From a bacterium (lineage in GTDB: Bacteria; Electryoneota; Electryoneia; Electryoneales; Electryoneaceae), in contig CAXXKJ010000002.1 in NCBI GenBank assembly GCA_963675295.2, positions 1,568,001 to 1,632,000 of the forward strand: 64,000 nucleotides of DNA. Reading direction: 5' to 3'. A model generated the notes under the pieces. That model did no database searches, was not told the DNA's origin, and was given only the letters and a program-made list of their open reading frames with translations. The position numbers and the translations under genes were made by a program. Of this stretch, positions 12,409-44,411 are shown one piece after another; the first letter of the stretch is position 1, and every line of letters starts with the position of its first letter.

Positions 12409-12429
12409 GACTTCGCTCTCTCTGAAATC

Positions 12430-12515
12430 GCAACGGATGCAAAAGACGCAACAGATGCAACTGACGAAACAAGTAACGTTTGATGATCCCGACCAGCAAG
12501 CTGGTCGGGGCAAAC
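12430..12515. repeat. Nonamer tandem repeat (GCAACAGAT-like) plus GATCCCGAC...GTCGGGGCAAAC palindrome
   Basis: gcaacggat gcaaaagac gcaacagat gcaactgac; palindrome at 12485-12515. Confidence 0.8.
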
Positions 12516-12581: not shown

Positions 12582-15545
12582 TTAGTTTGCGCTCTTGGCT
12601 TTCGCTTTCTTCTTCGGGGCCTCGGAGGAACTCTTCTTCGGCGTCTCAGAAGAACTCTTGTCCACTCCCTTGTTGGCTCCGTTGCCCTGGCCGTTCGTGT
12701 GCAGAAGCTGGTCGAACGAATCCGGCAGCACGGTCTCGTCCTGAATCCGTTCGGACGATGTCAGTGCCATGTCAATGATCAGCTGTTGTTCCTGCCGGTG
12801 CCGGTTGAGCGAACCGGTCGCCGGGCTGGCGGCGTACGCTCGGCCGACATAGCGAATCTTCAGCTCGGGGAAGAGGTGGCGTAGCAACGGGTACATGAAG
12901 GTCCAGCCGCCACGGTTCTTCGTCTCTTCCTGCACCCAGACCAGCTCTTTCGCGTTGCTGTATCGGCCGACGATTTCCCGCAGCAGATCGTCCCGTGTCG
13001 GATAAAACTGTTCGACACGGATCAGGGCGGCGTCCTTGAGATCGTCCTCGTCCCGCTTTTCCGCGAGGTCGTGATAGATCTTCCCGCTGCACAGTATGAT
13101 GCGCCGGGCCTTCAGGGGTTGCTTCGGATCGTCGAGGATCTCGTGGAACTGGCCGTCCACGAGTTCGTCAATGGTCGATACCGCGCGCTTGTCACGCAGC
13201 ATGCTCTTCGGCGCCATGATGATCAACGGCTTGCGGAACGGCTGCCGGATCTGACGGCGCAGCGCGTGATAGTACTGTGCCGGGGTGGACAGGTTGCAGA
13301 CCTGGATATTTTCCTCGGCGCAGGCGGCGAGGTAGCGTTCGAGGTATGCGTTCGAGTGTTCCGGTCCCTGGCCCTCGTAGCCGTGCGGCAACAGCAAGAC
13401 GAGGCCGCTGTTGCGTTGCCACTTCGACTCGCTGGAGGTGATGAACTGGTCGACGATCATCTGCGCGCCGTTGGTGAAGTCGCCGAATTGCGCTTCCCAA
13501 TGGATTAACATGCGCGGCTCGGCGAGCGAGTAGCCGTACTCGAAGCCGAGGATTGACTGTTCCGCCAACGGGCTGTTGTAGGCGCAGAAATGGCCCTGCT
13601 CCTCGGCGATGCTGTTGAGCGGGAGGTAGCGTTCGGCGGTGTCGGTGTCAACCCAGCCGGAATGGCGCTGGGAGAACGTGCCGCGGATGCTGTCCTGACC
13701 TGACAAACGGACCGGCGTCCCTTCCTGCAGCAGGGTACCCCAGGCCAATGATTCGGCGAACGACCAGTCGACCGGACCGTTCTGTTCGAACGCTTCGACG
13801 CGTTTCGGCAGCTGCCGGGCGATCTTGCGGTTGATGTTGAAGCCGTCCGGGACAGTGGTCAGTGCCTTGACCACCTTACCGAGGTCTTCCCGCGTCACCC
13901 GGGTGTCGACAGGTTCACGGGTGTACTTGCCTTCCAACCCTTTCCAGTAATCATCGTAGGCCTGGACTTCGAGTTCGGTAACCTCGCTGCGGGCGTATTC
14001 GAAGTGACGCTGCAGTTGTGTCTGCAGATCATCGGTGATCTTCTCGGCGTCTTCCTTTGTCAGCACCTTTTCGTCGAGCAGATGCTTCGTATAAATCTCA
14101 CGTGTGGACGGGTGCTTCTTGATCTTCGCGTACAGTTTAGGCTGGGTGAACGCCGGTTCGTCGCCCTCGTTATGGCCGTGCTTGCGGTAGCAGAGCATAT
14201 CGACGACGACATCCTTGCCGAATTCCTGCCGGTACTTCAGCGCGAGGTCCATCGCGTAGACGACCGCTTCCGGATCGTCGCCGTTGACGTGGAAGATCGG
14301 CGCGTCAATCATCCGCGCGATGTCGGTGGAATAGGGCGAGGAACGCGAATCGGACGGATCGGTGGTGAATCCGATCTGGTTGTTGATGATGACATGCACC
14401 GTGCCGCCCGTGGAATAGCCCTTGAGCTGGGACATGTTGAGCGTTTCCGCGACCATGCCCTGCCCGGCGAATGCGGCGTCACCATGCACCAGCAGGCCGA
14501 GCACCTTCTTGCGGTTCTCGACATCACCACGCTGCCGTTGTTTCGCCCGCACCTTGCCCAACGCGACCGGGTTAACCGCTTCGAGGTGGCTCGGGTTGGC
14601 GGTAAGGCTGAGGTGGACCGACCGTCCCCAACGATTGCGGTGTTCGCTGCTGTAGCCCTTGTGGTACTTGACGTCTCCGTCGCCGCCATACGCTTCGGAG
14701 AGCATCGCCCCCTCGAACTCGGAGAAGATCATTGCGTATGACTTGTCGAGGATGTTGCTGAGGAAGTTGAGCCGGCCACGGTGGGCCATGCCGATGACGA
14801 TCTCCTCGATATCGTGTTCCGGGGCCTGTTCGACGAGATGGTGCACGCCGGGAATAACCGCTTCGGCGCCTTCGAGGCTGAACCGTTTCTGGCCGGGGTA
14901 GCGTGTCTGGATGAAGCTTTCGAAGATTTCGGCGTCAGTGAGGTGCGAGAGGATTTCGAGCTTGTCGTCCTGGTCGAGATTGGGCTGGTTCTGGTTCGGC
15001 TCCATCTGGGCCTGCAACCAGCGCCGCACCTCGATATTCTCGATGTGAGTGTATTGCACGCCGATGTGGCCGCAGTAGGTTGCTTTCAGGGCGTCGATGA
15101 TCTCACGCAACGACAGCCGGTCAGGGACATGCAGGTGCCCGGTGTCGAACTCACGGTCGAGGTCGGCCTCGCTGAAACCGAAGTTCTCGATGGAGAGGTC
15201 AACCGCGCCGGCGTCCGGCGACTGCAGCGGGTTGATGTCGGCGATCATGTGGCCGAGACTGCGGTAAGCGTAGATCAGGCTGGCAACACGTGACTGTGCT
15301 GCGGCTTCGTCGGCGGAATAGCCCTGCGCCGAACCCGGAGCGGTTGCACCGGCGGGCGCACCGTCCTGCTCAGACTGCATCCCCTGGGCGAACTTGAATC
15401 CCTTGAAGAAGAACTGCCAGGTTTCGTCCACCGATTCCGGGTCTTCCAGCCAGCGTTGATACTGCTGGTCGACGTATTCCGCGTTGTCCAGTCCGAGGCC
15501 GGACAGGTTGATCAGGTCCGTTGAGGCGTTTTTCTCATCCGCCAC
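12582..15545 (-). CDS. sucA: 2-oxoglutarate dehydrogenase E1
   Basis: KRFSLEG, GMAHRGRLN, NPSHLE, HGDAAFAGQG, GHNEGDEP, LPHGYEGQGPEHS. GTG start chosen after AGGGGG. Confidence 0.97.
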   Translation of the reverse strand: MADEKNASTDLINLSGLGLDNAEYVDQQYQRWLEDPESVDETWQFFFKGFKFAQGMQSEQDGAPAGATAPGSAQGYSADEAAAQSRVASLIYAYRSLGHMIADINPLQSPDAGAVDLSIENFGFSEADLDREFDTGHLHVPDRLSLREIIDALKATYCGHIGVQYTHIENIEVRRWLQAQMEPNQNQPNLDQDDKLEILSHLTDAEIFESFIQTRYPGQKRFSLEGAEAVIPGVHHLVEQAPEHDIEEIVIGMAHRGRLNFLSNILDKSYAMIFSEFEGAMLSEAYGGDGDVKYHKGYSSEHRNRWGRSVHLSLTANPSHLEAVNPVALGKVRAKQRQRGDVENRKKVLGLLVHGDAAFAGQGMVAETLNMSQLKGYSTGGTVHVIINNQIGFTTDPSDSRSSPYSTDIARMIDAPIFHVNGDDPEAVVYAMDLALKYRQEFGKDVVVDMLCYRKHGHNEGDEPAFTQPKLYAKIKKHPSTREIYTKHLLDEKVLTKEDAEKITDDLQTQLQRHFEYARSEVTELEVQAYDDYWKGLEGKYTREPVDTRVTREDLGKVVKALTTVPDGFNINRKIARQLPKRVEAFEQNGPVDWSFAESLAWGTLLQEGTPVRLSGQDSIRGTFSQRHSGWVDTDTAERYLPLNSIAEEQGHFCAYNSPLAEQSILGFEYGYSLAEPRMLIHWEAQFGDFTNGAQMIVDQFITSSESKWQRNSGLVLLLPHGYEGQGPEHSNAYLERYLAACAEENIQVCNLSTPAQYYHALRRQIRQPFRKPLIIMAPKSMLRDKRAVSTIDELVDGQFHEILDDPKQPLKARRIILCSGKIYHDLAEKRDEDDLKDAALIRVEQFYPTRDDLLREIVGRYSNAKELVWVQEETKNRGGWTFMYPLLRHLFPELKIRYVGRAYAASPATGSLNRHRQEQQLIIDMALTSSERIQDETVLPDSFDQLLHTNGQGNGANKGVDKSSSETPKKSSSEAPKKKAKAKSAN

Positions 15546-15772
15546 GGGAGCCCCCTGAGCGTGTGTTCGCTGCGTGCGTGACAAGTTGTATCCTGCTCAC
15601 GCAGAACTTGCAAGATAGATTCCTGCGATGCTGTGCGATTGCGGAGCACAGATCGCCCGCGGAGGTGGATCTCCTTCGCGGGCGTAAAAATTAGGAATCA
15701 CTAAGATAAGGTGCGGAGCTCAGGAAAGAGAACTCCTCAACGCGAACGGGGAGAACCCGAGCGCACCATGTC

Positions 15773-16612
15773 TCAGGTCGAGATCAGCGGACGGTAGAGG
15801 TCGACCCGGCGATCGTTGAGACGATGATTGTGCGGCGTGATCATCTTCTCATCGGCGAGGTTCAGGTCGATGGTCGCCAGTCCGACATGGTCCTGATCTT
15901 CCGGTGCGGACACGAGAATGTCGCCGCGCGGGCTCATCACCTGGCTCGCGCCGGTGAAGGTCAGGCTGCGGCCGACACGATCTTCACGTCCGATCCGGTT
16001 CGAGGTGATGGTGAAGACACCGTTCTCCACGCTGCGCGAATACATCGCCTTCTGGCAGTAGCGGAGGACGAGGTTCGACGGATGCGCGACGACTTCCGCA
16101 CCGGACAGCGCCAGCAGGCGGGTCGTTTCCGGGAACAGCCAGTCGAAGCAGATCATCAGGCCGATGCGTCCGGCTGGAGTCACGATCACCGGCGGCTGAT
16201 TGTGGGCCTTGTCGAACAGTTCCTTCTCACGGTCGAACAGGTGGATCTTACGGTAGGCATGCGCCATGCCGTCCGGGGTGATCAGGACGGCGGTGTTGAA
16301 AATGCGGTTGTGACGGGTATCTTTTTCCGGGAAACCGATCACGAGGGTGGTTTTCAGTTCACGCGCGAGGCCGGCCATTTTCTTGGCGGTGGGGCCGCTG
16401 TTGAACGGCTCAGCGTATTTTTCGACTTCATCCCGGTCCATGAACTCATAGCCGGTGGTTGCCAATTCGGGGAGCACGAGCAAGTCGGCGTCGGGCGCAG
16501 TGCGGATAAGTTCTTCCGCCATGTCAAGATTCTTCTTGACCTCACCGAATTCCGGTTTAAACTGCACATACCCAACTGTTTTCTCGCGTCTTTCCTTGGC
16601 AGGCTTGTTCAT
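15773..16612 (-). CDS. Carbon-nitrogen hydrolase (nitrilase superfamily)
   Basis: Catalytic triad motifs LPEL, YRKIHLF, ICFDW.FPE. Confidence 0.92.
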   Translation of the reverse strand: MNKPAKERREKTVGYVQFKPEFGEVKKNLDMAEELIRTAPDADLLVLPELATTGYEFMDRDEVEKYAEPFNSGPTAKKMAGLARELKTTLVIGFPEKDTRHNRIFNTAVLITPDGMAHAYRKIHLFDREKELFDKAHNQPPVIVTPAGRIGLMICFDWLFPETTRLLALSGAEVVAHPSNLVLRYCQKAMYSRSVENGVFTITSNRIGREDRVGRSLTFTGASQVMSPRGDILVSAPEDQDHVGLATIDLNLADEKMITPHNHRLNDRRVDLYRPLIST

Positions 16613-16731
16613 GGCTACTCCGTCTATCCTGAAAAATAATCTTGAAGTTACGAATCCCGAACTTTTTCCCGGAACGAATCCCACGGTGCGTAAACCACAC
16701 CAGATCGCTTAGAATGCGATAAGAATCACAA

Positions 16732-16965: not shown

Positions 16966-18522
16966 TCAGTTTTCGTCCATCAGGCGCTTCGAGCCAGCCA
17001 GTTTGCGGATTTGGCTAACATCCTGAACCGATTCAAGGCAGCCGAGGTAGGTTCCGTCCTCGTCGCGCACCGCATCGTAGCGGATAAATATGAACTTCCC
17101 GCCGAAGTCATCCATCCAGAATTGAGCTGTTTCCCGGGTTCCTGCTTTCATTTCGCTGAGGATGCGGTTAACCATGTTGAGACTTTTGGGCGGGTGGCAG
17201 TTCTGCACCTTGCGTCCGATCACGGCGGGTGTGCGCGGGAAGATTTTGTCCGTGACGCCGGTAAAATAGCAGACCTCGTCGTTCTCATCCACGAAAGACA
17301 GCTCCACCGGAAGCGCGAGCAGGATGCGGTCGAGCTGCTTCCCAGTGAGATGGCCGTGGGTGATGACCACAGAATCAGCATTCGCCGCTGCGTTTTTGCG
17401 GTAGGCCGGTTCGTTGTCGGCATCCGTCTCCTCGGCAAACAACGGGTGATGCTGCTTGAAGTGGTCGGACGCGGTTTGCTGCACAGGTCCTGGCATCTTG
17501 ATTCGTGGCGACCACTCATCACCACGTTCGACCAGCGTGAAGCCGAGTTCTTCTTCCTGCTTGTAAATGTCGGCCCAGTGCTCGTGCTGCAACATCTCGA
17601 TGGAGGTGGGCAGCAGGATGGTCTCCTCCTTGGTCACCATGTCGTCGATTTTGGTCAACAGCGGCGGCAGTTGCGATGCAAGAGCGGCGGTATCCGTGTC
17701 TTCCAGCGCCTGGCCGGCGGCTTTCAATCCGGCGCGGATCTCATCATGGATCGCCCACATCACTTTGCTCGGACCTTCAAAGCCTTCGCGTTCCAGCTTC
17801 GGGAAGAGCAGGTTTTCCTTGCGCAGGTAGTGGCGTTCGACTTGCTGCAGGAGGGGGAGCTGGTCGTTCAGGGCGGCAACCAGCTTGTCCGGGTCGCCGG
17901 AGTGAGATTCGACAGCTTGCCGGATCGACTGCGTAATCTCCTTCAGAGCGAGATTTTCCGCGACGAACGTATAGACCGGATGGCCGGGAGTTTGTTCGGC
18001 AACCTGGGTTCCGGCTGCTCCTTCGCCCATGATGCTGACGTGCACATCGCACAGCTCCTGGATCATTTCAACGGGCAGTCCCTCGCTGATCAACTGCTGT
18101 TCCATCAGCGCGATGTCTTTCGCCGGGACAGACCCGAATTGATGCTGGAATCTCTCCTTCGCCGATTCCATCGTTTCGTTGCCGGCATGGAGAGAGAGGA
18201 TTAAAGCCTTGAGGTCGTCCAGCTGCTGCTGATCGTCGGCGACAGGCTTGCCAGGATCGACCTGAACCTCAACCTGCTCGTGTTCACGGATCGCCCCGGC
18301 GACGACGGCAAGCAGATCCTCCAGCTTGAGGCTGCCCATCGCGGCGGCACGGCGGAGAGTTGCGACACGGCCGATGGTGTTGCGCATCAGTGGATTCTTC
18401 AGCGCCTTGAAGTTGCTGGACAGCTCAATCAGCCGGTCCGCGAGCCACGGGTAGTCGCGGAGCAGATCGTGGATTCGTGTATCGGCTGAAATCGTTACGG
18501 GCGTGCGGTTATCGTTACTCAT
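16966..18522 (-). CDS. DUF1858/DUF438 + hemerythrin-like + PAS domain protein
   Basis: LKNPLMRNTIGRVATL, MEQQLISEG...LCDVH, GHPV..F..EN, HYLRKENLLFP, VMWAIHDEIR, IGRKVQNCHPPKS. Confidence 0.88.
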   Translation of the reverse strand: MSNDNRTPVTISADTRIHDLLRDYPWLADRLIELSSNFKALKNPLMRNTIGRVATLRRAAAMGSLKLEDLLAVVAGAIREHEQVEVQVDPGKPVADDQQQLDDLKALILSLHAGNETMESAKERFQHQFGSVPAKDIALMEQQLISEGLPVEMIQELCDVHVSIMGEGAAGTQVAEQTPGHPVYTFVAENLALKEITQSIRQAVESHSGDPDKLVAALNDQLPLLQQVERHYLRKENLLFPKLEREGFEGPSKVMWAIHDEIRAGLKAAGQALEDTDTAALASQLPPLLTKIDDMVTKEETILLPTSIEMLQHEHWADIYKQEEELGFTLVERGDEWSPRIKMPGPVQQTASDHFKQHHPLFAEETDADNEPAYRKNAAANADSVVITHGHLTGKQLDRILLALPVELSFVDENDEVCYFTGVTDKIFPRTPAVIGRKVQNCHPPKSLNMVNRILSEMKAGTRETAQFWMDDFGGKFIFIRYDAVRDEDGTYLGCLESVQDVSQIRKLAGSKRLMDEN

Positions 18523-18610
18523 GAATCGCTGTTCCTTAGCTACGGGTTGTGTTGCTGGTAGAAGGATACAGCGAATCGGTCCGAACGGAATTGACGAATG
18601 CAAAAACGGC

Positions 18611-18663
18611 AAACTCCACCCGGAGTCAGGACAAATGGCGATTCGTGACTCAGGGTGGAGTTT
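18611..18663. terminator. Long hairpin, possible terminator or processing site
   Basis: AAACTCCACCC.GAGTCA ... TGACTC.GGGTGGAGTTT. Confidence 0.5.
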
Positions 18664-18687
18664 CAGTAACGATGGGATGTAAGCGGA

Positions 18688-19086
18688 CTATTCGAGCGTA
18701 CGTTTCTCGCCGGTGAGCGGCTGGAGTTTGGTGATGTCCTCAACGTATTCGAGGCAGCCAAGGTACTGGTTGCCGAGCGCGCGGACGGCGTAATAGCGGG
18801 TGAGGATCATACGGTCCTGCGAATCCTTGTGCCAGAATTCGGCGACATCACGCTTGCCGGATTTCAGTTCCTCGAGCAGTTGATTGACGAGGTCAATGCT
18901 GCTTTCTGAATGGCATTGTCGCACGTCGGTTCCGATGATGGACAAGTCGCGTTCGAAAATGAGATTCGGCCGGTCGGTGAACCAGGTGACGATGTCATTT
19001 TCATCAATGAACGTGATTTCGCCCGGCAGGGCGGACAGGATGGCTTCGATCTGTTCGGGAGACAGTTCCCCCGTATTGAACATCAT
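18688..19086 (-). CDS. Stand-alone PAS domain protein, paralog of the neighbouring C-terminal PAS
   Basis: LPGEITFIDEND, IGTDVRQCH, GKRDVAEFW, YLGCLEYVEDI. Confidence 0.85.
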   Translation of the reverse strand: MMFNTGELSPEQIEAILSALPGEITFIDENDIVTWFTDRPNLIFERDLSIIGTDVRQCHSESSIDLVNQLLEELKSGKRDVAEFWHKDSQDRMILTRYYAVRALGNQYLGCLEYVEDITKLQPLTGEKRTLE

Positions 19087-19127
19087 CTGCAGTGTCCTCC
19101 TCAGTGATCTATGATGAAGTCGGGGGG

Positions 19128-20336
19128 TCAGGCGTTGTTGAGACGCCGCGCCGCTTCCGCGATGACGTCTGGCGGTTCCGCGGTGTAGCAGAAACGCGCC
19201 CATCCGTCATACGCCACACCGAACGGACCGCCTGGGCTGACGACCACGCCGGCATTCAACATGCGGTCGAGTCGCTGGGCATCGTTGAGGCCGTCCCAGG
19301 TGTCGCGCATGTCGACGAAAAGATAAAACGAACCGTCCGCTGCCATGTACGGTCGTCTCACATTTTCCATCGCCGCTGAGCGGCACTCGAGATACGCCGC
19401 GCGCAGACGCTCGGTGATCGTGAAGTGATGGGCAAGCGCGCGAATTCCCTGCACTTGCGATGGCCGGTTGGGCTCGTACCCGACACCGACATGGGCGGGA
19501 TGCATTGCCGCGAGAGGCCCCGGCGCGGCAGTGATCCAGCCGAGGCGGAGGCCGGCGGCGGCGTACGATTTGGATGCGCTGAACACCGAGACCGTGCGCT
19601 CATGCATCTCGGGCAGCGATCCGATGCTGACGTACGGTTGCTGCGCCCAGACGTAATCCTCGTACGCTTCGTCACTCAGGATCCAGAGGTCATGCTTCCG
19701 TGCAAACGCGGCGATCTGTTCGAGAATCGGCTGCGGCAGGAACACGCCGGACGGGTTGTTCGGGTTGTTGAAGTAGATCGCGCGGGTGTTTTCGGTCAGG
19801 AACGGGGTGAGGATCTGCTCAACGTCGGCACCAGCTGAAGGCGTTGGATGATCATCAATCTGGATGTCTTCCGCGTTCGGGGCGAAATGGTGGAAGAACG
19901 GCACCTCGACGGCGCAGACTTTCGCCGTGGATGCAACCACCTTGAAGATCGTCCAGTGCGGCGACAGGGTGAGGACTTCGTCGCCCGGTTCCAGCAGCCG
20001 TGCCATCGCGAGGAACAGGCCGCCGGTCGCGCCGAAGGTGATCTGGATGTCGCGTTCGGAGTTCAGCGGCAGCTTGTTGACCGTGGTCAGCTTGTTGAAC
20101 AGACGGCGGCGCAGCTCAGGTTCACCCTGCGTTTCGCCGTACCGGCTCATGCGATCATTCCACGGTTCGGCGTCCAACGGTTGGTTCAGCTCAGGCGGCA
20201 GGTCAGAGTAGGTGTCGCCGACATGCAGCGCGATCGGCGCTTCGCCGGAACCGGAACGAGCATCGATTTCTTCGCGGATACGGTTGAAGATGGTGGCCTT
20301 GAAGCCATGATCACGAAGGTCTGCGGGGCGGGGCAT
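19128..20336 (-). CDS. Class I/II PLP-dependent aminotransferase
   Basis: NNPNNPSG, SDEAYE, SASKSYAAAGLRLG. Confidence 0.92.
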   Translation of the reverse strand: MPRPADLRDHGFKATIFNRIREEIDARSGSGEAPIALHVGDTYSDLPPELNQPLDAEPWNDRMSRYGETQGEPELRRRLFNKLTTVNKLPLNSERDIQITFGATGGLFLAMARLLEPGDEVLTLSPHWTIFKVVASTAKVCAVEVPFFHHFAPNAEDIQIDDHPTPSAGADVEQILTPFLTENTRAIYFNNPNNPSGVFLPQPILEQIAAFARKHDLWILSDEAYEDYVWAQQPYVSIGSLPEMHERTVSVFSASKSYAAAGLRLGWITAAPGPLAAMHPAHVGVGYEPNRPSQVQGIRALAHHFTITERLRAAYLECRSAAMENVRRPYMAADGSFYLFVDMRDTWDGLNDAQRLDRMLNAGVVVSPGGPFGVAYDGWARFCYTAEPPDVIAEAARRLNNA

Positions 20337-20339
20337 GGG

Positions 20340-21926
20340 TCACTCCTGCGCGTCGCGTTGATTGTCGTCGTGGGGGATCTGCACGGTCGCCGAATACGGG
20401 CCGGGATTGAGCTGATCCGGGGTCAGGTCGAGTGGGAAGCGCAGGATCAGGGTCGTGCCTTCACCACGCTGGCTGTGGATCTCGATCTCTCCCTGATGCT
20501 GTTCCATCACGTTGTGCGCGATCGCCAGACCCAACCCCATGCCGACACCGGGGCCCTTGGTGGTGAAGCCGGGGTCGTAGATGAGGGCGAGGTGTTCCTC
20601 GGCGATGCCGGAGCCGTTGTCACTGAAACGGATCACGGCGTGGCTGTCTACCGTACTCGTTTCGATCCGGATGAAGCCGTCTCCCTTGATCGATTCGATA
20701 GCGTTGGTCAGCGTGTTAAAGAAGACCTGGTTCACCAGCACCGGGAAGCCGAGCACGGGCGGCAAGTCGCCAAATTGTTTCTCGATGGTGATGCGGTCTT
20801 CCCAGCCCGGCGACAGCATGGCGATGGAATCTTCGAGGCCCTGGTGCAGGTCAAAGGTTTGGATCTCGGGTTCGTCCAGCCGTGCGAACGACTTCAACCG
20901 GTTGACCATCGTCGCGATCCGGTCGGAACCCGTCTGCACCACCTTAATCGCGGATTGAATGCTCTTCAGGATTCGCGCGGCTTTCTTGCGGTTCGCTTCG
21001 GAGTCCGGTTGTTCGAGCAGCGTGTCCAGCGAGGCGCTGGCAACCTGAACGGTTTTGGTGCTCGATTTGACAGCGCCCAGCGGGGTGTTGAACTCGTGCG
21101 CGACTCCGGCGACAAGGTGCGCGAGCGAAGCGATCTTTTCGGATTGAACCAACCGTGCCTGGGCGTCCCGGAGGTGACGGGTGCGGTCAGCGACTTTCTG
21201 TTCGAGGCCGAGGTTAAGCGCTTCGATCCGGTCAAACTGATGGTGCACGATGGCGATCAGGAAAAAGATCGCGCCGATTGCCGCACCAACGAAGCTGAGG
21301 AACTGGCCGGTGAAATTGAAATGAACCATCAGCAGCTCGAAAATCGGCTGCGCCAGGATCAGCACCGCGAGGCCGATTGTGTTGAGCGTGAGAAAGTGAC
21401 GGTCCGCTTCCTCGTCCGCTTCCCGAATCGCACGAAACAGCATCGGCCAGACAGTGAACGGCAGCGGGAGCATCGCCACCATCAGCAACCAGCCCAATGG
21501 GCCGTAACTGATGTTTAATCCGGTACTGGTAACCGTGACATTCTCGAACATCTGGTCGGTCAGACTACCGTAGATGATCATTGCCGGGATCGCAATGCCG
21601 AGGTAGATCAAGTTGTATTTTATAGGGATACCGAGGAATTTTTCGCGCAACCGCTTGTCATGTCCCGTCAGGACGATGATGAAATAGATCGTGCCCGCCA
21701 ATGCCAGCAGCGACGTCAGGATCAGCACCGGAATCCACTTGGACGCGTCCGGGTGATCCCAGTTGTTGAGCACGAAAAAGTTGACCAGCGCATCGGTTCC
21801 GAATGCTCCCGCGAACAGGGCGAACGCGACATTCACCCGTTCCTTGGTCCGGAACAGCCAGCCGACCAGCTCAAGAGTGTAGAGCAGAACGGCGGCGATC
21901 AACGCAGGTATGGCGTACGGGTTCAT
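20340..21926 (-). CDS. Multi-pass membrane sensor histidine kinase
   Basis: About 7 TM segments, H-box AGVAHEFNTPLG, NQVFFN, DNGSG, FTTK, GMGLGL. Confidence 0.9.
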   Translation of the reverse strand: MNPYAIPALIAAVLLYTLELVGWLFRTKERVNVAFALFAGAFGTDALVNFFVLNNWDHPDASKWIPVLILTSLLALAGTIYFIIVLTGHDKRLREKFLGIPIKYNLIYLGIAIPAMIIYGSLTDQMFENVTVTSTGLNISYGPLGWLLMVAMLPLPFTVWPMLFRAIREADEEADRHFLTLNTIGLAVLILAQPIFELLMVHFNFTGQFLSFVGAAIGAIFFLIAIVHHQFDRIEALNLGLEQKVADRTRHLRDAQARLVQSEKIASLAHLVAGVAHEFNTPLGAVKSSTKTVQVASASLDTLLEQPDSEANRKKAARILKSIQSAIKVVQTGSDRIATMVNRLKSFARLDEPEIQTFDLHQGLEDSIAMLSPGWEDRITIEKQFGDLPPVLGFPVLVNQVFFNTLTNAIESIKGDGFIRIETSTVDSHAVIRFSDNGSGIAEEHLALIYDPGFTTKGPGVGMGLGLAIAHNVMEQHQGEIEIHSQRGEGTTLILRFPLDLTPDQLNPGPYSATVQIPHDDNQRDAQE

Positions 21927-21948
21927 GTTCCTCTCAACGGCTTCTCTC

Positions 21949-22322
21949 AACCACGGAATACACGGAACACACGGAAAAAGACTTTTTGAACCGCGAAAGG
22001 CGCGAAAACAGCGAAAAAAACCTGAAGTAATTGGTAACTGCGAAAGAAAAAAAACAAATCTGAATGATTGGAAAAGAAAACAACTTAAAAAATTTAAAAA
22101 TAAAAAGTATGTATCAATACAAAGAATAACAGGTATATCCAGTTACTATGATTATAAATATATAGGTAAATATTGGTAGTTATTGTTTTGCAATTAAAAG
22201 TATTTATTTTTTTTTAACATAAAGTAATTCTTTTATCTTTTCTTTCCTTTTTTCGCGCCTTTCGCGGTTCAATCTGTTGTTATCTTTCCGTTTATTCCGT
22301 TTATTCCGTGTATTCCGTGGTT
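21949..22322. mobile_element. Nested inverted-repeat element enclosing AT-rich DNA (MITE-like)
   Basis: Outer 19-bp perfect IR at 21949-21967/22304-22322 and inner 23-bp perfect IR at 21986-22008/22250-22272, around a roughly 240-bp very AT-rich core. Confidence 0.6.
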
Positions 22323-23448
22323 ACCTGTCTTTCAGGTATACCGCGCCGGGTTCGATCATCGCGCCACGCGGCTGGTACTCGAGGCAGTGCGCCATCCAGC
22401 CGGTCTGGATCGCGAGGCAGAACGGGATCGGGAACGAGCTCACCGGCAGGCCGATGGGTGCGTACACGAGGCCGGTGATGCTGTCGACGTTGGCGTAGAT
22501 ACCTTTCGGTCCGAGGGCGGATTCCACCTCACCGCGTACCGCTTCGTAGACTTTCCAGCGGCCGGCCATGCCCTTGTCGGCGAGCAGGTTCTTGGCGAAC
22601 GGTTCCAGCACCCGCACGCGTGGGTCCGGGCACTTGTAGATGCGGTGGCCATACCCGGGGAAACGGTACTTGCCGGCGGCTTTCACCTGCGCCCAGGTGC
22701 GCGCGTCTTTCGGTTTGTCAAACTGGGCCAGATCTTCGTACGCGAGCTGGTTCGCGCCACCGTGGCGAACACCGGAGAGCGCGCCCATGCCAGCCAGTAC
22801 CGCCGAGCCGAGATCGGCGCCGGTGCTGATGACGATCAGTGCGGCGAACGCGGCGGCGTGGAGGCCGTGTTCGGCCTGCACGATCAGGCTGACGTCGAAC
22901 GCTTTTTCCTCGTGTTCGTTAACCCGGCGTCCCAGCGCCTGGTAAAGGAAATTCGCGGAGAAGCCGAGATGGTCTTTCGGCGGCAGTGGTTTCTTGCCGT
23001 TCAGGTGTCGAATCGCTCCGGCAGCCAGAGCTGCCGACCAGCTGAGGATCCGGGCCGGACGCCGCCACTGGGCCTGCATGTCGGTGCGGGAGGCCTCCGG
23101 GATATGGCACGCGGCGATGGTCAGCATGGTGCGATACTGCGCCAACGGGTGCGCGTTGGACGGGATATACTTCAGCGCGTCGAACGCTTCCTGCGGCGGA
23201 GTGCGCCACTTTTTCAGCTCTTCGTCCCACATCGCGGCTTCCTGCGGAGTGGGCAGATTGCCGTGCAGGATGAGGTACGCGACCTCCTCGAACGAGCAGC
23301 AATCGGCCAGTTCGTCGAGCGGGTAACCACGGTACATCAGGCGGCTGTTTTTGCCATCAATTTGGCCGACCCGAGTGTCGGTGACGACGAGGTTTTCGAG
23401 CCCGCGGTTGTAGGTTTGAATCTGGTAGCCGGAGGTGTAGGGTCTCAC
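22321..23448 (-). CDS. Citrate synthase family protein B (catalytic His/His/Asp retained)
   Basis: GLENLVV, LMYRGYP, SGVRHGGAN, GYGHRIYK.PDPR, NVD. GTG start overlaps the upstream TGA. Confidence 0.88.
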   Translation of the reverse strand: MRPYTSGYQIQTYNRGLENLVVTDTRVGQIDGKNSRLMYRGYPLDELADCCSFEEVAYLILHGNLPTPQEAAMWDEELKKWRTPPQEAFDALKYIPSNAHPLAQYRTMLTIAACHIPEASRTDMQAQWRRPARILSWSAALAAGAIRHLNGKKPLPPKDHLGFSANFLYQALGRRVNEHEEKAFDVSLIVQAEHGLHAAAFAALIVISTGADLGSAVLAGMGALSGVRHGGANQLAYEDLAQFDKPKDARTWAQVKAAGKYRFPGYGHRIYKCPDPRVRVLEPFAKNLLADKGMAGRWKVYEAVRGEVESALGPKGIYANVDSITGLVYAPIGLPVSSFPIPFCLAIQTGWMAHCLEYQPRGAMIEPGAVYLKDR

Positions 23449-24647
23449 TTTTCCGCCCCCCGGTTGATGCGGCGGATCGGGTGGCCGACATAACGGTCGA
23501 GCGGACGGTACAAGCGCGGGTTCTCCAGTTCTTCGTGCACCCGTGCCATCAGGCCGGCCATGCGTCCCACCATGTACAGGCACGGCAGCATCGGCTTATC
23601 CGCGCCGATCAGGTGAAACAGAAGCGCGGCGTAGAAGTTGATGTTGACGTGCACGCCGCGCGGGGCCAGTTGCCGCAGGGCTTCATCCTCAACGGCGCGA
23701 GCGATGTCAAACAGTTCCGGGGTGCTTTTGCGCCGGGCCTGGGCGGCGACTTCCTTGCGCAGGATGACGACGCGCGGGTCGGGCATGTGGTACAGCCGGT
23801 GACCGAAGCCTCCGATACGTCCGCCGGAGGCGATGGTCGAGGCGACCCACAGCCGCGCTTCTTCCGGATCGTTCAGGGCGAGAATCTGCTCGAGCACTGT
23901 CTCGCCCGCCCCGCCGAGCTTGTCTCCACGCAGGGCGGACAATCCGGCGACGACATTGTAGTACGGATCGGCGAGTGTGCTGGCGACGACCATCGAGGTG
24001 AAGGTGGGCGCATCGAGGCCGTGATCGGCGAAAAGCACCCAGAGCAGGTCGAGCGAATGGACGTCTTCCGAGTCTGGGTCGCGATCCTGCAACACGCGCA
24101 GCATCTCGTGCGCGATGTCGTATTCAGAGTGGAACAGCACTGGCCCGCGTCCCACGCGATGCGCGGCGATTTGCGCGACCAGCGCCGCAACTTGTGCGAT
24201 GATGCGCAGCTCTCGCCAGTGACGGTCGCCGGATAGATCGTCTTCGACAGTCATTTCGTGGCACCCGAGCGCGGACACTCCCGCCCGCAGCATGCGTGTC
24301 GGATGGATACCGGGGTCCATCGAACGGATCAACGCGATGACATTTTCCGGTAGTTCCCGGCTGGCGCGCAGGTTGTCGCGGAAGCTGGTGAACGCGGCTT
24401 CGTCCTCAGCCGGTTCGTTGCCGGTGATCAGCAGGTGAGCGATTTCCTCGTAGCTGTGCATACCGGCCAGCCGTTCGATCGGTACGCCGCGGTATTCGAG
24501 TGTACCGCTGGACGGATCGAGCCAACTGACGCGCGTCGCGGAAGCGATCACGCCGGACAGTCCCGGACCGACCTCGCTGGTGACCGGCCAGTCGAGCTCG
24601 TCCAGCGCCCATGAGTAATTGGAACTGAGGGTGCGGAAGGCTTTCAT
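23445..24647 (-). CDS. Citrate synthase family protein A (catalytic His and Asp substituted)
   Basis: GLSGVIA, LEYRG, ADHG, GDKLGGA, GFGHRLY..PDPR, NINFY, LYRP. Confidence 0.88.
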   Translation of the reverse strand: MKAFRTLSSNYSWALDELDWPVTSEVGPGLSGVIASATRVSWLDPSSGTLEYRGVPIERLAGMHSYEEIAHLLITGNEPAEDEAAFTSFRDNLRASRELPENVIALIRSMDPGIHPTRMLRAGVSALGCHEMTVEDDLSGDRHWRELRIIAQVAALVAQIAAHRVGRGPVLFHSEYDIAHEMLRVLQDRDPDSEDVHSLDLLWVLFADHGLDAPTFTSMVVASTLADPYYNVVAGLSALRGDKLGGAGETVLEQILALNDPEEARLWVASTIASGGRIGGFGHRLYHMPDPRVVILRKEVAAQARRKSTPELFDIARAVEDEALRQLAPRGVHVNINFYAALLFHLIGADKPMLPCLYMVGRMAGLMARVHEELENPRLYRPLDRYVGHPIRRINRGAEK

Positions 24648-24763
24648 CACGATCCTTGTCAGCTCTTTGGTTGCCGAAAGGTACGGTCAGGGTGCGGGTG
24701 GGACAACGTACGCGGGTGGAAAATCAAGCCGCGTGGCGATCCGGCAGCCTGCTGGTTGATCTC

Positions 24764-25264
24764 TCATTCTTCCCGCAGCAACCGCCGGAACTGAGCGACC
24801 TGGCTGGAATGATAGATCGCATGAAACGCGGCGCCGGTGACCAAGTATTCGAGCTCATCATTTGGAACGGCGGGTTGGATTGTCTTGTCTCGCAGCTCGA
24901 CAAGTGTGTCGAGCAATCTGGTGTATTCCTCACGCAACAGCTTGCGATCCGCTTTCCACTGGGTTTCGGTCGCTTCTGCTGGTTGTTCAAGCCAGTCGCT
25001 GCCTGTACGTGGAAAGCTACCCTGTCCGGTGCCGCTGATCTTGACCCGCACCCGGTAGCACCAGTAGGCGCAATGCAGGCAGATCTGCCAGATAGTCTTG
25101 CTGCGTCCCGGGACGGCACGACGGGCGGTTTCGGCATCCACGCCCTTCAATGCGCTGTTGAGGTTCTTGCCGTGCCACGCGCCGCGCATGTAACTCATTT
25201 CAACACTGGCGATCAAGCTATCCCAACCGGGAGGAGTATCTGAGCGCCGCCAGAACTTAGCCAT
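24764..25264 (-). CDS. DinB/YfiT family protein
   Basis: AWHG, TIWQICLHCAYW, HAIYHSSQV. Confidence 0.85.
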   Translation of the reverse strand: MAKFWRRSDTPPGWDSLIASVEMSYMRGAWHGKNLNSALKGVDAETARRAVPGRSKTIWQICLHCAYWCYRVRVKISGTGQGSFPRTGSDWLEQPAEATETQWKADRKLLREEYTRLLDTLVELRDKTIQPAVPNDELEYLVTGAAFHAIYHSSQVAQFRRLLREE

Positions 25265-25464
25265 GGTGAAGTCTCCCACAATCAACTTCTATCCTGTTGT
25301 ATTTATAGATGATTGTAAGAATATGATCGGGGAGCCCACAACAAGAAAGTGTTAGTTAACGATTGAATAAGTACTTAAGCAGTACCATATTGCCCATAGC
25401 GAAACAGAAATAGTTCTACTTGCTTGCGTTACAGTATTGTCAGGAAGAGATGAGGTGCCGTCGT

Positions 25465-25980
25465 ATGCGTCGTGTTTGTTCGTGGTGCAATTCGGAAATG
25501 GATCCGATTCCATCCTCGCTGGTGGATCCGCGCGGCATTACCCACGGCATCTGCGAGGATTGTTCCAGACGGCTGATCCGTCCCGAATCGCATACCATTC
25601 AGGAATTCCTCGAGAAGTTACCGTTCCCGGTGATGGTCGTGGATGATGATGTTGTCGTACTCGCGGCGAACAAGCTCGCGTTGACACTGCTAGGCAAGTC
25701 GGAATATGAAGTTGTCGACAAGCTCGGTGGTGTGGTAGTGGAGTGTGCGTACTCCGAGCAGCCCGGCGGGTGTGGCAAGACCTCGTTTTGCCGCGGGTGC
25801 CAACTGCGTGAAAGTGTTACCCGGACCTACATCAGCGGCCGCTCATTGAAGGGGATTGAGGCGACGTTAACCACGATGATGGACGATACACTGGTGGACG
25901 TGATGCATCACATTACCACGGAGAAGATGGGGGATCTGGTGCTGGTACGTCTCGACGACCTGAAATCGAACCTGCCGTAG
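25465..25980 (+). CDS. Zinc-finger (CxxC...HxxCxxC) plus Cys-rich PAS-like protein
   Basis: VCSWC...THGICEDC; LEKLPFPVMVVDDD..VLAAN; CAYS...GCGKT..C..C.LR. Confidence 0.75.
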   Translation: MRRVCSWCNSEMDPIPSSLVDPRGITHGICEDCSRRLIRPESHTIQEFLEKLPFPVMVVDDDVVVLAANKLALTLLGKSEYEVVDKLGGVVVECAYSEQPGGCGKTSFCRGCQLRESVTRTYISGRSLKGIEATLTTMMDDTLVDVMHHITTEKMGDLVLVRLDDLKSNLP

Positions 25981-27969: not shown

Positions 27970-28368
27970 TCAGGCCTGGACGGCTTTGTAGCCGTAGTAG
28001 ATGACGCTGGCCTCGTTGTCATCGTACAGCTTGCGGAACTCGAAGTTGACCGGCATGCCGATCTTGACGTCGTCGACGTCGAGGTCGGTCAGCTGGCAGG
28101 TGAGCCGGACTCCGTCTTCGGTTTCGACCACGGCGAGTGCGTACGGCGCGAGGTCGGCGTACGGTGTCGGCGCGACACGGATGATGGTGTAGGTCACCAC
28201 CTTGCCGCTGCCGCTGAGCTGCACCTCTTCGAATGTCGCGTCGAGGTTGCCCGGCGCGACGAGACGCGGCGGGAAGTAGATTTTTCCCGTTTCGGTGTCC
28301 TTGTTCGCGATCATGCGGTACCGTTGCGGCTGTTCACGCCACACCCGGCCGGTTAATGTCTGGGCCAT
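27970..28368 (-). CDS. DUF35 OB-fold protein (Zn-ribbon cysteines absent)
   Basis: YFPPR, LSGSGKVVTYT, PYALAVVE, VKIGMPV..EFRKL, IYYGYK; lies downstream of the thiolase. Confidence 0.9.
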   Translation of the reverse strand: MAQTLTGRVWREQPQRYRMIANKDTETGKIYFPPRLVAPGNLDATFEEVQLSGSGKVVTYTIIRVAPTPYADLAPYALAVVETEDGVRLTCQLTDLDVDDVKIGMPVNFEFRKLYDDNEASVIYYGYKAVQA

Positions 28369-28490: not shown

Positions 28491-29654
28491 CTAGACAGCC
28501 TCGAGAATCGAGACGACGCTGGAACCGCCCGAACCGCCCATGTTCTGCGCAAGGGCACGGTTCGCCTTCGCCAACTGGCGGCCGTTCTCGGCGGTGCCTC
28601 GGAGCTGCTTGACCAGCTCCACGATCTGCGCCACGCCGGTCGCGCCGACGGGATGGCCCTTCGACTTCAAGCCGCCGCTCGGGTTCACCGGGAACTTGCC
28701 GTCACGCGCGGTTTCGCCGGCCATTGATGCCGGGCCCGCCTTGCCGGGTTCGTAGACGCCCATCGCTTCGAGCACGGCGATTTCCGCGATCGTGAAGCAG
28801 TCGTGCACTTCGCAGAAGTCGATGTCATTGATGGTGACACCGGCGAGGTCGAGCGCGCGTTTGGTCGCGGTGGCGACAGCGCCGAGGTGCGTGATTTCCT
28901 TGCGGGCGTGCAACGCGAGCGTGTCGGTCGCCATGCCAACGCCGAGGATCTTGATGATCGGCAGGCCCATGCTCTTGGCGAGGTCAACCGGCGCGAGGAT
29001 CGCGGCCGCCGCGCCGTCCGTGACCGGGCTGCAGTCGAGGATGTGCAGCGGGTCGGCGACCATGGTGCTGTTGAGCACGCCGTCCACGGTGATCTTCGCC
29101 GGGAACTGCGCGTTCGGGTTGAGTGAGCCGTTGTCGTGGTTCTTCACCGCGACATGCGCCAACATTTCCGAGGTGGTGCCGTACTTGTCCATGTGCGCGT
29201 GCGCGAGCATCGCGTACAGGCCGGGGAAGGTCGCGCCGTGGAAGCCTTCGTACTCGGCGTCCGCCGCGGTGGCGAGGGCGTAGGTTGCCATGCCGCCGTC
29301 CACGTCCGTCATCTTCTCCACACCGCCCGCGAGCACAATGTCGCTGAGGCCGGAGGCGACTTCGATCCACGCCGACCGGATCGCCGTACCGCCGGAGGCG
29401 CAGGCCGACTCGACGCGTGTCGCCGGGATCGGCGCGACGCCGAGGTAGTCGGCCATCAGGCTGCCGATGTGTTCCTGGCCGACGAACAGGCCGCCGGACA
29501 TGCAGCCGATGTACATGCTGTCGAGGTTGTCGACGCCGGCGTCTTTCATCGCGCCCTTGGCCGCTTCCACGAACAGATCGCGATAGCTGCGTTCCCACAG
29601 TTCGCCAAACTTTGTCATCCCGATGCCGATGACCGCCACATCCCGCATCGTCAT
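28491..29654 (-). CDS. Acetoacetyl-CoA thiolase, archaeal/SCP2-like type
   Basis: [40 protein letters not shown]. Confidence 0.93.
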
Positions 29655-30695: not shown

Positions 30696-30989
30696 TTACT
30701 CACCCCAAATCTGCTTATGCAGCCACTTCAGTGCCGTCGGGATGATGAGCGTCAACACGGCGGCGATGGTGAACAGCCAGATCATGCTCACCGGCCGCCA
30801 GCCGAATCGCTCAAGAACCTGGTAGTTGACGAAGGTGATGATCGCAAAGGTGGTCCAATAGGTCCACGGCTGCGCGCGTTCAATCTTGTGCTCGATCACC
30901 GTCAGCCACCAGAACCCGGCAAGCACGCCGATCAAGGCGACAATTCCGCCAATGCCGATCAGCCATTCGCCGGGCGTCAACGGCGTCAC
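30696..30989 (-). CDS. Small three-TM membrane protein
   Basis: GTG start overlaps the HMG-CoA synthase TGA; hydrophobic segments. Confidence 0.65.
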   Translation of the reverse strand: MTPLTPGEWLIGIGGIVALIGVLAGFWWLTVIEHKIERAQPWTYWTTFAIITFVNYQVLERFGWRPVSMIWLFTIAAVLTLIIPTALKWLHKQIWGE

Positions 30990-32041
30990 GAGTTCCGCAG
31001 AATCTTGTGGCGGAACTTGGCGTACTGGCCGTAGCTGAGGTAGCGCTTGTCCTCATCCAGCTGCGGACGTGTATGCGGCGCCTTGTCCTGCAGCGCGGTG
31101 ATTTCGTCGGTGACGGTGAAGATGAAGCCGTCCGAACCTGCGCCGGAGCCGTAGCTGACCATAAAGATCTTGTCGCCCGGCTTGGCGATGTCGAGCACCG
31201 CGCTCAGCCCGATCGGGCTCGCGCCGGAATAGGTGTTGCCGAGCCACGGGGTCAGCCAGCCGGTCTTGAACCCGTCACCCTTGACGTCGAAGCCGAGCAT
31301 TTTCGCCGCACGTTGCGGGAACTTGCCGTTCGGCTGGTGGAAGACACAGTAGTCGAAGTCTTCGGGCTTCATGCCGGACTTTTCGAGCAACGCGTTCGCG
31401 CAACCCATCGTGGTGCGGAAGAACGCTGGCTCACCGGTGAAACGTCCGGCGTGTTGCGGGTAGTGTTCGTACTCACGGCGCCAGAAGTCCGGCGTGTCGC
31501 TCATCCACGAGTGGGTGTAATCGATCGTCGCGACGACTTTGTCCTTGCCCATGATGAATGCTGCCGCGCCGGCGGACGCCGAATACTCAAGCGCGTCACC
31601 CGGGGCGCCTTGCGAGGTGTCCGCACCGATGCCGACGGCGTAGTCCATCTCACCGGCCTTGACCAGCGAATGGGCGACGTACATCGCCTGCGATCCAGCC
31701 TTGCATGCAAATTCGAAGTCGGCACAGTGGGTATCGTGTCCCGCGCCGATGGCTTCGGCGACGGTGGTCCCGGATGGTTTCACGGCGTACGGGTGGGATT
31801 CCGACCCGATGTAAAGCGCGCCGATTTTGAGCGGGTCGATGCCGGCACGCATCAGGGCGCGACGCGCGGCGGTGACAGAGAGGGTGATCACGTCTTCGTC
31901 CGGACCCGGAACGGACTTTTCATACAACAGCAGGCCCTTCTTGTAACTGGGAGCGTCCGCCCCCCAGACTTCAGCAATGGTCTCCAGCTTGATTCGGTTC
32001 CGTGGGAGTTTGCATCCCCAGCCGACAATCCCGACGCTCAT
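30986..32041 (-). CDS. Hydroxymethylglutaryl-CoA synthase, archaeal type
   Basis: EKSVPGPDED, GSESHPYAVKP, EFACKAG, DTPDFWRR, FHQPNGKFP, GNTYSG, SYGSGAGSD. Confidence 0.93.
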   Translation of the reverse strand: MSVGIVGWGCKLPRNRIKLETIAEVWGADAPSYKKGLLLYEKSVPGPDEDVITLSVTAARRALMRAGIDPLKIGALYIGSESHPYAVKPSGTTVAEAIGAGHDTHCADFEFACKAGSQAMYVAHSLVKAGEMDYAVGIGADTSQGAPGDALEYSASAGAAAFIMGKDKVVATIDYTHSWMSDTPDFWRREYEHYPQHAGRFTGEPAFFRTTMGCANALLEKSGMKPEDFDYCVFHQPNGKFPQRAAKMLGFDVKGDGFKTGWLTPWLGNTYSGASPIGLSAVLDIAKPGDKIFMVSYGSGAGSDGFIFTVTDEITALQDKAPHTRPQLDEDKRYLSYGQYAKFRHKILRNS

Positions 32042-43969: not shown

Positions 43970-44410
43970 CTAAACATCCTCAACATCAGGTAAAGATCCA
44001 TGCGGCTTGTAAAAATAATCCTTGCACAATTCTCTATCTATAAATACAATATTGCAATCTTTAAGAGATATTCTTTTATAATCCTCTTTCTTTTCAACTA
44101 CTAACATTTTTTCATCAGTACTACAAGCTACTGATTTATATAAATGCAAGCCTTTTGTTTTAGAACGGCCAATATTGAACGAGAGACATTTTTTGCTTTC
44201 TAGTACTTGTAAACTCCTGAGCCATTGCAATAGTCCACCAGCATCATCATCATTAAGCAGTAATTTATACCTATCCAATATTAAATGATGACTATCAATA
44301 CATAAATAATACTCCTCATCAGCAAGAAATAACCCGAGAACACCGTATAATAGATAATTATCAACCTGTGCCCTCTTGACAAGGTTTTCACACACGGTAA
44401 ACTTGGGCAT
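43970..44410 (-). CDS. AT-rich hypothetical protein, partner of the ATPase
   Basis: 146-aa ORF starting 1 nt after the ATPase stop, with a GAGGA RBS. Confidence 0.75.
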   Translation of the reverse strand: MPKFTVCENLVKRAQVDNYLLYGVLGLFLADEEYYLCIDSHHLILDRYKLLLNDDDAGGLLQWLRSLQVLESKKCLSFNIGRSKTKGLHLYKSVACSTDEKMLVVEKKEDYKRISLKDCNIVFIDRELCKDYFYKPHGSLPDVEDV

Positions 44411-44411
44411 T

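Follow-up and report, generated by a model that had tools for sequence, protein, structure and literature searches.

The window analysed here is a stretch of 64,000 nucleotides from contig CAXXKJ010000002.1 of a bacterium of the Electryoneota (assembly GCA_963675295.2), and the subject is a pair of adjacent minus-strand genes, A and B, whose products both belong to the citrate synthase (CS) family. Gene A (23445..24647, minus strand) encodes a putative non-catalytic CS-fold subunit of 400 residues from an ATG start, and gene B (22321..23448, minus strand) a putative catalytic CS-fold subunit of 375 residues from a GTG start. An alternative GTG for gene A at 24650 would yield 401 residues; the ATG lies one codon further in, AAGGA is found upstream, and the ATG fits better given that a 96%-identical homologue has 400 residues. 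The junction reads gaaaaGTGAgaccc, in which the TGA stop of A shares four nucleotides with the GTG start of B (GTGA, 23445..23448, minus strand), an arrangement that, judged from the sequence, implies translational coupling. A scan of 21800-25500 for promoters and terminators returned no signal above that of shuffled sequences. A first-pass annotation, made by a model from the letters alone, had described both open reading frames (ORFs) and their overlap, and all are present, on the minus strand.

Both proteins are members of the CS family by full-length profile. PF00285 matches A with an E value of 2.6e-87 over profile positions 1-356 of 357 and B with 1.3e-88 over positions 1-355 of 357, and the two proteins are 29% identical to each other. 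The monomer models reach mean predicted local distance difference test (pLDDT) values of 82.8 for A and 76.4 for B, with the terminal arms as the low-confidence parts, and the model of B superposes on PDB 1ixe with a template modelling (TM) score of 0.82 at 36% identity. Each protein matches 22 NCBIfam models, every one below its cut-off; the best model for both is TIGR01800, at 277.5 bits for A and 286.9 bits for B against a cut-off of 421.3, and neither protein passes the cut-off of any NCBIfam CS model. Citryl-CoA lyase is no better as an assignment, with scores of 71 and 94 bits for the pair against the PRK06224 cut-off of 261 and with A and B both of full length (401 and 375 aa), where a lyase would have about 260-280 aa. 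Public records label relatives of A and B 'citrate/2-methylcitrate synthase'. A citrate (Si)-synthase (EC 2.3.3.1) would carry His274, His320 and Asp375 in each chain and three substrate arginines in each site, 329 and 401 in cis and 421 in trans; A has only His320 of the triad, B has all three residues, and neither site has the full set of arginines.

Residues are numbered here as in pig CS, the numbering being transferred via the Thermosulfidibacter enzyme, which coincides with pig at His274; A was aligned by HMMER to Synechococcus 8an1 and B to Thermus 1iom. The diagnostic motifs are GDKLGGAG at 242, VNINFY at 335, VGRMAG at 361 and LYRP at 380 in A, and GVRHGGAN at 226, ANVDSI at 319, LAIQTGW at 345 and MIEP at 364 in B. 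Aligned with 8an1, A places GDKLGGAGE over GPLHGGANE (His to Leu) and NINFY over NVDFY (Asp to Asn), and it retains the arginine where GRMAG falls over ARVAG and LYRP over IFRP. Aligned with 1iom, B retains RHGGAN, GYGHRIY..DPR and NVD, and it places LAIQTGW over VARISGW (Arg to Ile) and MIEP over LLRP (Arg to Glu). A has Leu245 at the His274 position, Asn338 at Asp375, Tyr359 at Phe397 and Asp at Asn242, and keeps His210 (238), His284 (320), Arg293 (329), Arg363 (401) and Arg382 (421). B keeps His194 (238), His229 (274), His268 (320), Arg277 (329), Asp322 (375) and Phe343 (397), and has Ile347 at Arg401, Glu366 at Arg421, His197 at Asn242 and Ala at Ser244. The losses and retentions listed for the two proteins in the first-pass annotation were right in every detail, both by motif look-up and in the HMMER alignments.

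This complementary split is a fixed trait of the family and no chance pattern of one genome. For each protein 120 homologues were retrieved at 59-100% identity, and residues were tallied over 121 sampled sequences per family. Position 274 of the A family is Thr in 65, Leu in 33, Gln in 19 and Ser in 4, and His in none of the 121; Asn375, Arg329, Arg401 and Arg421 are each found in 121/121, and His320 in 120. In the B family, His274, His320, Arg329 and Asp375 are each present in all 121 sequences, position 401 is Ile in 119 and Val in 2, and position 421 is Glu in 76, Ser in 13, Ala in 13 and Asp in 10, with no Arg among the residues listed. No main-clade sequence departs from Arg421 in A or from His274, His320, Asp375 or Phe397 in B (121/121). 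The residues that would make up B's site (from B in cis and from A in trans) are held constant, and several that would belong to A's site (A274, A397 and B421) drift.

A comparison with 102 relatives picked for the canonical residue pattern places these losses against a broader background. Fifty-two columns are conserved at 85% or more among those relatives, of which A retains 38 and B retains 37. Both proteins have lost Asn242 (Asp in A, His in B), Ser244 (Pro in A, Ala in B) and Leu273; A alone has lost His274, Asp375, Phe397 and the Trp following Arg401; and B alone has lost Arg401 and Arg421. Asn242 and Ser244 are 99-100% conserved among the canonical relatives.

The two genes occur as a unit. 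Gene B follows gene A directly and on the same strand in 28/28 genome loci (two of these, L014 and L027, are one contig). Among 80 metagenome loci 74 are A-type; 22 of these offer no room downstream and were left out of the adjacency count, and in the other 52, which have at least 400 nt after A, B is the next gene in every instance (52/52). A four-nucleotide NTGA overlap that opens the B frame is found in 81 of the 83 junctions for which both gene ends are available, the exceptions being L042 and L077. An A-type gene is present in 16 of 41 related genomes, each time with a B-type match directly downstream, and a B-type gene in 18 of 79 genomes of the phylum. The homologues come from metagenome-assembled genomes labelled Acidobacteriota (Thermoanaerobaculia, Holophagae), Methylomirabilota, Thermodesulfobacteriota and others. 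The first-pass annotation had asked whether A/B-type genes always co-occur with these substitutions, and in the loci and sequences sampled here they do, with adjacency unbroken and the split seen in 121/121 sequences per family.

At 50% identity the B family amounts to one full-length representative, beyond which the next relatives fall from 543 to 258 bits. Of 1.84 billion representatives, the best 150 include no fused A-B protein, and a set of 135 full-length representatives held no second, independent split-pair family; odd residue patterns occur there as scattered singletons, several of them partial. Some distant representatives (P0260, P0273, P0367, P0276, P0285 and P0315) carry a canonical CS domain fused to other domains, namely PTAC (phosphate propanoyltransferase), AMP-binding adenylation with or without a carrier domain, a sigma-70 factor and a response-regulator receiver. 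Two broken copies were also noted, a second, fragmented A/B-like copy (G012:C26:264660-266923) and a B gene interrupted by a stop (G013:C341:2339-3604), which may be pseudogenes or assembly errors.

Phylogenetically, A and B are each monophyletic with support of 1.0 and long stems, and their internal topologies mirror each other. Ratios of nonsynonymous to synonymous substitution rates (dN/dS) are 0.049-0.122 for A (six pairs with unsaturated dS) and 0.039-0.109 for B (pairs with unsaturated dS). Both genes are under strong purifying selection and A is not decaying, a result of weight for the first-pass annotation, which had named relaxed selection on A beforehand as the outcome that would tell against it. 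Two of the features expected of an obligate enzyme/pseudoenzyme heterodimer, constant co-occurrence with co-translation and purifying selection on the dead paralogue, are present in this family.

Covariation between the two proteins was scored as mutual information with average product correction (MI-APC) over 59 distinct A/B pairs, covering 44,590 inter-protein column pairs. The highest-scoring pair of all links A285, the residue after the His320 position, with B366, the Arg421 position. Of the 47 pairs with Arg at A285, 46 have an acidic B366 (Glu in 45, Asp in 1); none of the 13 with His (6), Pro (5) or Gly (2) at A285 does, and the non-Arg states arise at no fewer than five separate positions in the tree. 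On the A side, B364 and B366 covary most strongly with A214, 245, 285, 335, 337, 359 and 367, all of which flank former active-site positions. In the opposite direction, the strongest partners lie beside the His320 loop of B, namely B261 and B256 for A378 and B272 for A381. Columns of the C-terminal arms take part in 8 of the top 25 pairs against 2.1 expected, although kinship inflates such numbers. A link between A245 and B366, ranked 195 of 44,590, was set aside as an association confounded by clades.

Modelling of the A:B dimer, which the first-pass annotation had suggested as a check, gave a score of 0.93, where the highest-scoring of three controls reached 0.00; this pass may stem from likeness to solved CS homodimers. 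In calibration, the mark was reached by 58 of 80 solved complexes and by 2 of 110 mismatched pairs. The runs share at least 96% of their contacts, with partner pLDDT of at least 90. In the model, A378-395 packs against B195-199, 218-231 and 269, and B362-374 packs against A211-214, 238-245 and 285-286; these predicted arm-into-pocket contacts are the ones that covariation points to.

These observations bear directly on whether A and B could be two independent homodimeric isozymes that merely stand side by side. Canonical type-I CSs are homodimers, which speaks for such an arrangement. Against it, an A2 dimer would be without His274 and Asp375 and a B2 dimer without Arg401 and the trans Arg421; unbroken adjacency and the four-nucleotide overlap point to joint production; inter-protein covariation peaks at the arm-to-pocket contact; and the catalytically dead A is under strong purifying selection. 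We regard this explanation as very improbable. The reading that we favour, and consider probable, is that A and B form an obligate heterodimer with one composite active site in which the substrate pocket of B has been rebuilt. Both the heterodimerisation and the single site are inferred from sequence and structure models. The central proposal of the first-pass annotation, that A supplies the trans Arg to B's site in an obligate dimer, is upheld to this extent, with the residue split, adjacency, overlap, selection, covariation and modelling all lending it support.

In the proposed mechanism, tandem duplication of a type-I (dimeric) CS would have been followed by complementary loss, giving rise to A and B. 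B would supply acyl-CoA enolisation and attack on the acceptor through His274, His320, Asp375, Phe397 and Arg329, and the C-terminal arm of A would give the trans Arg (pig Arg421) to the site of B. The pocket of A, without His274, Asp375 and Phe397, would in turn be contacted by the C-terminal arm of B, whose former Arg, now usually Glu, would pair with Arg285 of A. The Arg285/Glu366 pairing suggests that A's pocket is at least partly filled by this arm, which makes a structural latch as likely as a ligand site. On the side of the suggestion that A's dead site may be regulatory, the pocket does keep His238, His320, Arg329 and Arg401, invariant or nearly so.

The substrate of B's site can be considered in light of the Metallosphaera sedula CS. 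In the structures of that enzyme, the carbonyl is held by Arg262 and His253, the carboxylate adjoining the carbonyl (or hydroxyl) carbon is engaged by Arg332 in a salt bridge, and Arg351 of the other subunit binds the citrate arm carboxylate (PMC6386500). The spacing from Asp to the first Arg and on to the second is 25 and 19 residues in the Metallosphaera CS, A and B alike, so that Arg332 and Arg351 correspond to the Arg401 and Arg421 positions. By this correspondence B's site would keep the contacts for the carbonyl and for a -CH2-COO- arm (His320, Arg329, His238 and the trans Arg) and would be without the salt bridge to the carboxylate adjoining the carbonyl (Arg401 to Ile, with Asn242 to His and Ser244 to Ala in addition). 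Given this rebuilt acceptor pocket, B's site probably belongs to no ordinary citrate synthase. The first-pass annotation had taken the loss of Arg401 to indicate a 2-oxo acid other than oxaloacetate. The loss itself is borne out; the contact that disappears is, going by the Metallosphaera structures (PMC6386500), the one to the 2-oxo-acid carboxylate itself, and the substitution is therefore no simple pointer to another 2-oxo acid. If the heterodimer is granted, two options seem roughly evenly balanced on the residues present, an acceptor devoid of a carbonyl-adjacent carboxylate or oxaloacetate held in an altered, probably weaker way.

The first of these options would make A/B a new Claisen-type CS-fold enzyme, acting on an acceptor with a -CH2-COO- arm and no carboxylate adjoining the carbonyl, or catalyzing the reverse cleavage of a hydroxyacyl-CoA. 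We put this forward tentatively, as a somewhat unlikely outcome in itself. Candidate acceptors would be 3-oxo acids or aldehyde acids, acetoacetate and malonate semialdehyde among them, and the remodelled pocket of A would then act as a latch or as a site for an effector. Two more familiar roles were considered and dropped. A methylcitrate synthase role finds no PrpB above cut-off (methylisocitrate lyase 21 bits vs 354), neither the TIGR01800 nor the PRK12351 cut-off is reached, and no prp gene lies near the pair, the PrpD-family gene being about 300 kb away. An HMG-CoA (3-hydroxy-3-methylglutaryl-CoA) lyase-like role, with acetoacetate as acceptor, was prompted by an archaeal-type HMG-CoA synthase cluster upstream of the pair in a genome in which no canonical HMG-CoA lyase was found (23.8 bits vs 246), but an HMG-CoA reductase is encoded elsewhere in the genome, the mevalonate pathway accounts for the cluster, and the role is without support.

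The genes around the pair offer a different perspective on its substrate. In the window's lineage, the pair is followed by a row that runs A, B, kinase, aminotransferase, sensor proteins, carbon-nitrogen hydrolase, SucA, SucB and Lpd. The membrane histidine kinase (20340..21950, minus strand) lies between the pair and a class I/II aminotransferase (19128..20336, minus strand), the latter also found downstream of the pair in L017, L018, L020, L026-L028 and L073. Two sensor-type genes, for a DUF1858/DUF438/hemerythrin/PAS_10 protein and a small PAS_10 protein, occupy 16966-19203 inside the same-strand row, and a carbon-nitrogen hydrolase of the nitrilase/amidase superfamily (15773..16684, minus strand) is likewise downstream of the pair in this lineage. 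The row ends with 2-oxoglutarate dehydrogenase E1 (12582-15584; 1257 bits vs a cut-off of 764), E2 (11107-12513) and E3 (9106-10506), all on the minus strand, and E1 comes after the pair in related loci of the lineage. Parts of the row follow the pair in L015, L017, L018, L020, L026-L028, L042, L043, L073 and L106. Given the sensor genes within the 2-oxoglutarate dehydrogenase row, the operon may be under oxygen or redox control. The histidine kinase was rejected as a fixed partner, its sensor half adjoining the pair only in L026, L027 and L073.

Between the stop of B and the start of the kinase lies an AT-rich element of about 370 bp (21949-22322), delimited by inverted repeats of 31 nt with 90% complementarity. 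A 17-mer of this repeat has 26 copies in the genome (13 forward and 13 reverse; 0 and 0 for the reversed control), often as inward-facing pairs 200-380 bp apart, and the element looks like a member of a repeat family resembling miniature inverted-repeat transposable elements. It is absent from an 80%-identical relative, in which B and the kinase abut.

Such a neighbourhood brings up the possibility that the same A:B heterodimer, with its one site, performs ordinary chemistry as a second CS isozyme that condenses acetyl-CoA with oxaloacetate, within an oxidative tricarboxylic acid (TCA) module co-expressed with 2-oxoglutarate dehydrogenase. This explanation departs from the one favoured here on substrate only, and we hold it to be a serious contender, though short of probable. 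It draws on the position of the pair at the head of an operon with SucA-SucB-Lpd in the window's lineage and on the presence of 2-oxoglutarate dehydrogenase in 14/14 phylum genomes with the main-type pair, although another 27 phylum genomes have 2-oxoglutarate dehydrogenase without the pair. Outside the window's lineage, moreover, the association dissolves: A and B of Acidobacteriota-type loci stand by themselves as two genes amid unrelated ones, their neighbours being an M28 peptidase, PKD proteins, a PLD-type enzyme, an ABC transporter and a convergent 361-aa ORF. Among the neighbours examined there, no conserved partner gene gave a metabolic hint. The 361-aa ORF (L034:11392-12477, minus strand), convergent just downstream of B, is without a Pfam match and has counterparts in 26 loci. 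The TCA-cycle connection given by gene context is thus confined to one lineage and does not decide the substrate.

The residues and the other CS genes of these genomes cut both ways in the same comparison. On one side, B keeps the catalytic triad, Phe397, Arg329 and His238 and would receive Arg421 from A; on the other, Arg401 is Ile or Val in 121/121 B sequences, Asn242 and Ser244 are also replaced, and the best scores of the pair fall well short of all NCBIfam cut-offs for citrate and methylcitrate synthases (277 and 287 vs 421). The genome holds a third CS (L003, C2:3679141-3680475), a complete protein of 444 aa of the eukaryote-like type, which passes NF007128 with 501.5 bits vs 344. Its closest relatives are the Thermosulfidibacter enzyme 8xxd (E 5.6e-135) and Desulfurella 7wbr, both reversible enzymes, a resemblance that counts in favour of a second, ordinary isozyme. 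A separate CS is nevertheless the rule where the pair occurs: 16/16 relatives with the pair hold another CS-family match of about 430-460 aa, and of 10 unrelated genomes in which the pair occurs, 9 have a separate full CS. Only G043, a genome of unknown completeness, shows no CS-family gene besides the pair, which speaks for the ordinary role.

A divergent sub-clade of the pair raises a further alternative. It comprises L016, L022, L024 and L025 (genomes G005, G019, G022 and G038), and the metagenome loci L099, L102 and L107 probably belong to it, judging by 46% identity to A. Asp375 of B has been replaced by Tyr in L016 and L024 and by Gly in L025, the B of L024 has lost His274 as well, and the A copy of L022 has His at position 375 and Tyr in place of Arg421. 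G022 holds one main-type and one divergent pair. No 2-oxoglutarate dehydrogenase was found in G019, G038, G052 and G056, which apparently have the divergent type only. By sequence, what this sub-clade retains is the two-chain scaffold itself. The pair might be no enzyme at all and act as a ligand-binding or regulatory complex on the CS fold, for instance as a metabolite sensor or moonlighting protein. The predicted catalytic death of A, the intact and still paired genes of the divergent loci and the histidine kinase and DUF438/hemerythrin/PAS_10 sensor genes in the window-lineage operon agree with this, and a CS acting independently of catalysis has been reported in Caulobacter (PMC7083601). 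The invariance of B His274, His320, Asp375 and Phe397 and of A Arg421 in 121/121 sequences of the main clade is hard to explain without catalysis, and the kinase sensor half adjoins the pair in three loci only; we consider a non-enzymatic role improbable.

Several points weigh against an obligate heterodimer with a rebuilt pocket. The covariation derives from only 59 related pairs, with APC as the sole phylogenetic correction, and the modelling, given the solved CS homodimers, does not tell AB from AA or BB. The sister relation of A and B is weakly supported (0.63). By analogy, a B2 homodimer might keep some activity, as in the oxaloacetate complex of the Metallosphaera enzyme the trans Arg351 turns away from the substrate (PMC6386500). 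The 2-oxoglutarate dehydrogenase operon suits a plain TCA citrate synthase at least as well. Finally, the divergent copies, judged by their residues, cannot use the canonical mechanism, and canonical catalysis would not be universal in the wider family.

Other features of the window stand apart from the pair. An archaeal-type trio lies 3-7 kb upstream on the same strand and consists of an HMG-CoA synthase-like gene (30986-32041, minus strand), a thiolase (28491-29654, minus strand) and an OB-fold DUF35-type protein (27970-28368, minus strand). The trio is kept upstream of the pair in L014, L018, L026 and L027, and with an HMG-CoA reductase present in the genome, it is explained by the mevalonate pathway. 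At 44001-46000 the GC content falls to 0.32, compared with about 0.58 in the rest of the window, and this stretch may be foreign DNA.

If the heterodimer is real, the symmetry of CS was broken after duplication, one chain keeping the chemistry and the other keeping the donated residue and a scaffold. Should the Claisen-type proposal also hold, A/B would be the first CS-fold enzyme both obligately heteromeric and independent of oxaloacetate. The family is spread over several uncultivated groups, well beyond one genome. With its members labelled only 'citrate/2-methylcitrate synthase', metabolic reconstructions probably count two extra CSs where one enzyme exists.

CS is the textbook homodimer, and its shared site, with an Arg donated across the interface, is a classic case of two identical chains. 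The nearest known systems are the type-I CSs of Gram-positives, archaea and Thermus (1iom/1ixe; Metallosphaera sedula 6abx/6aby), which have the same fold and length as A and B. The predicted dimer topology is alike, with a C-terminal arm that wraps the partner and reaches its site, and B shares the triad, Arg329 and Phe397 with these enzymes. Type-I CSs are homodimers with two identical sites of three arginines each (329, 401 and 421'), whereas A and B are two paralogues with partial sets and, as proposed, one composite site without Arg401, Asn242 and Ser244. 2-Methylcitrate synthase (PrpC) is represented by TIGR01800, the best model for both proteins, yet both fall far below its cut-off; in PrpC, a homo-oligomer, both Arg401 and Arg421 are retained. 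No bacterial heteromeric, heterodimeric or inactive CS was found in the full-text literature searched, from which most subscription journals are missing. A parallel in organisation comes from another fold: the S-adenosylmethionine decarboxylase (AdoMetDC) of Trypanosoma brucei and its prozyme are reported to form a heterodimer of an enzyme and a dead paralogue (PMC5201418). As with A and B, the dead paralogue is kept under selection as the needed partner of the active one. The two systems differ in that fold and chemistry are unrelated, and in that the dead subunit of A/B is predicted to contribute a trans active-site residue, beyond relieving autoinhibition.

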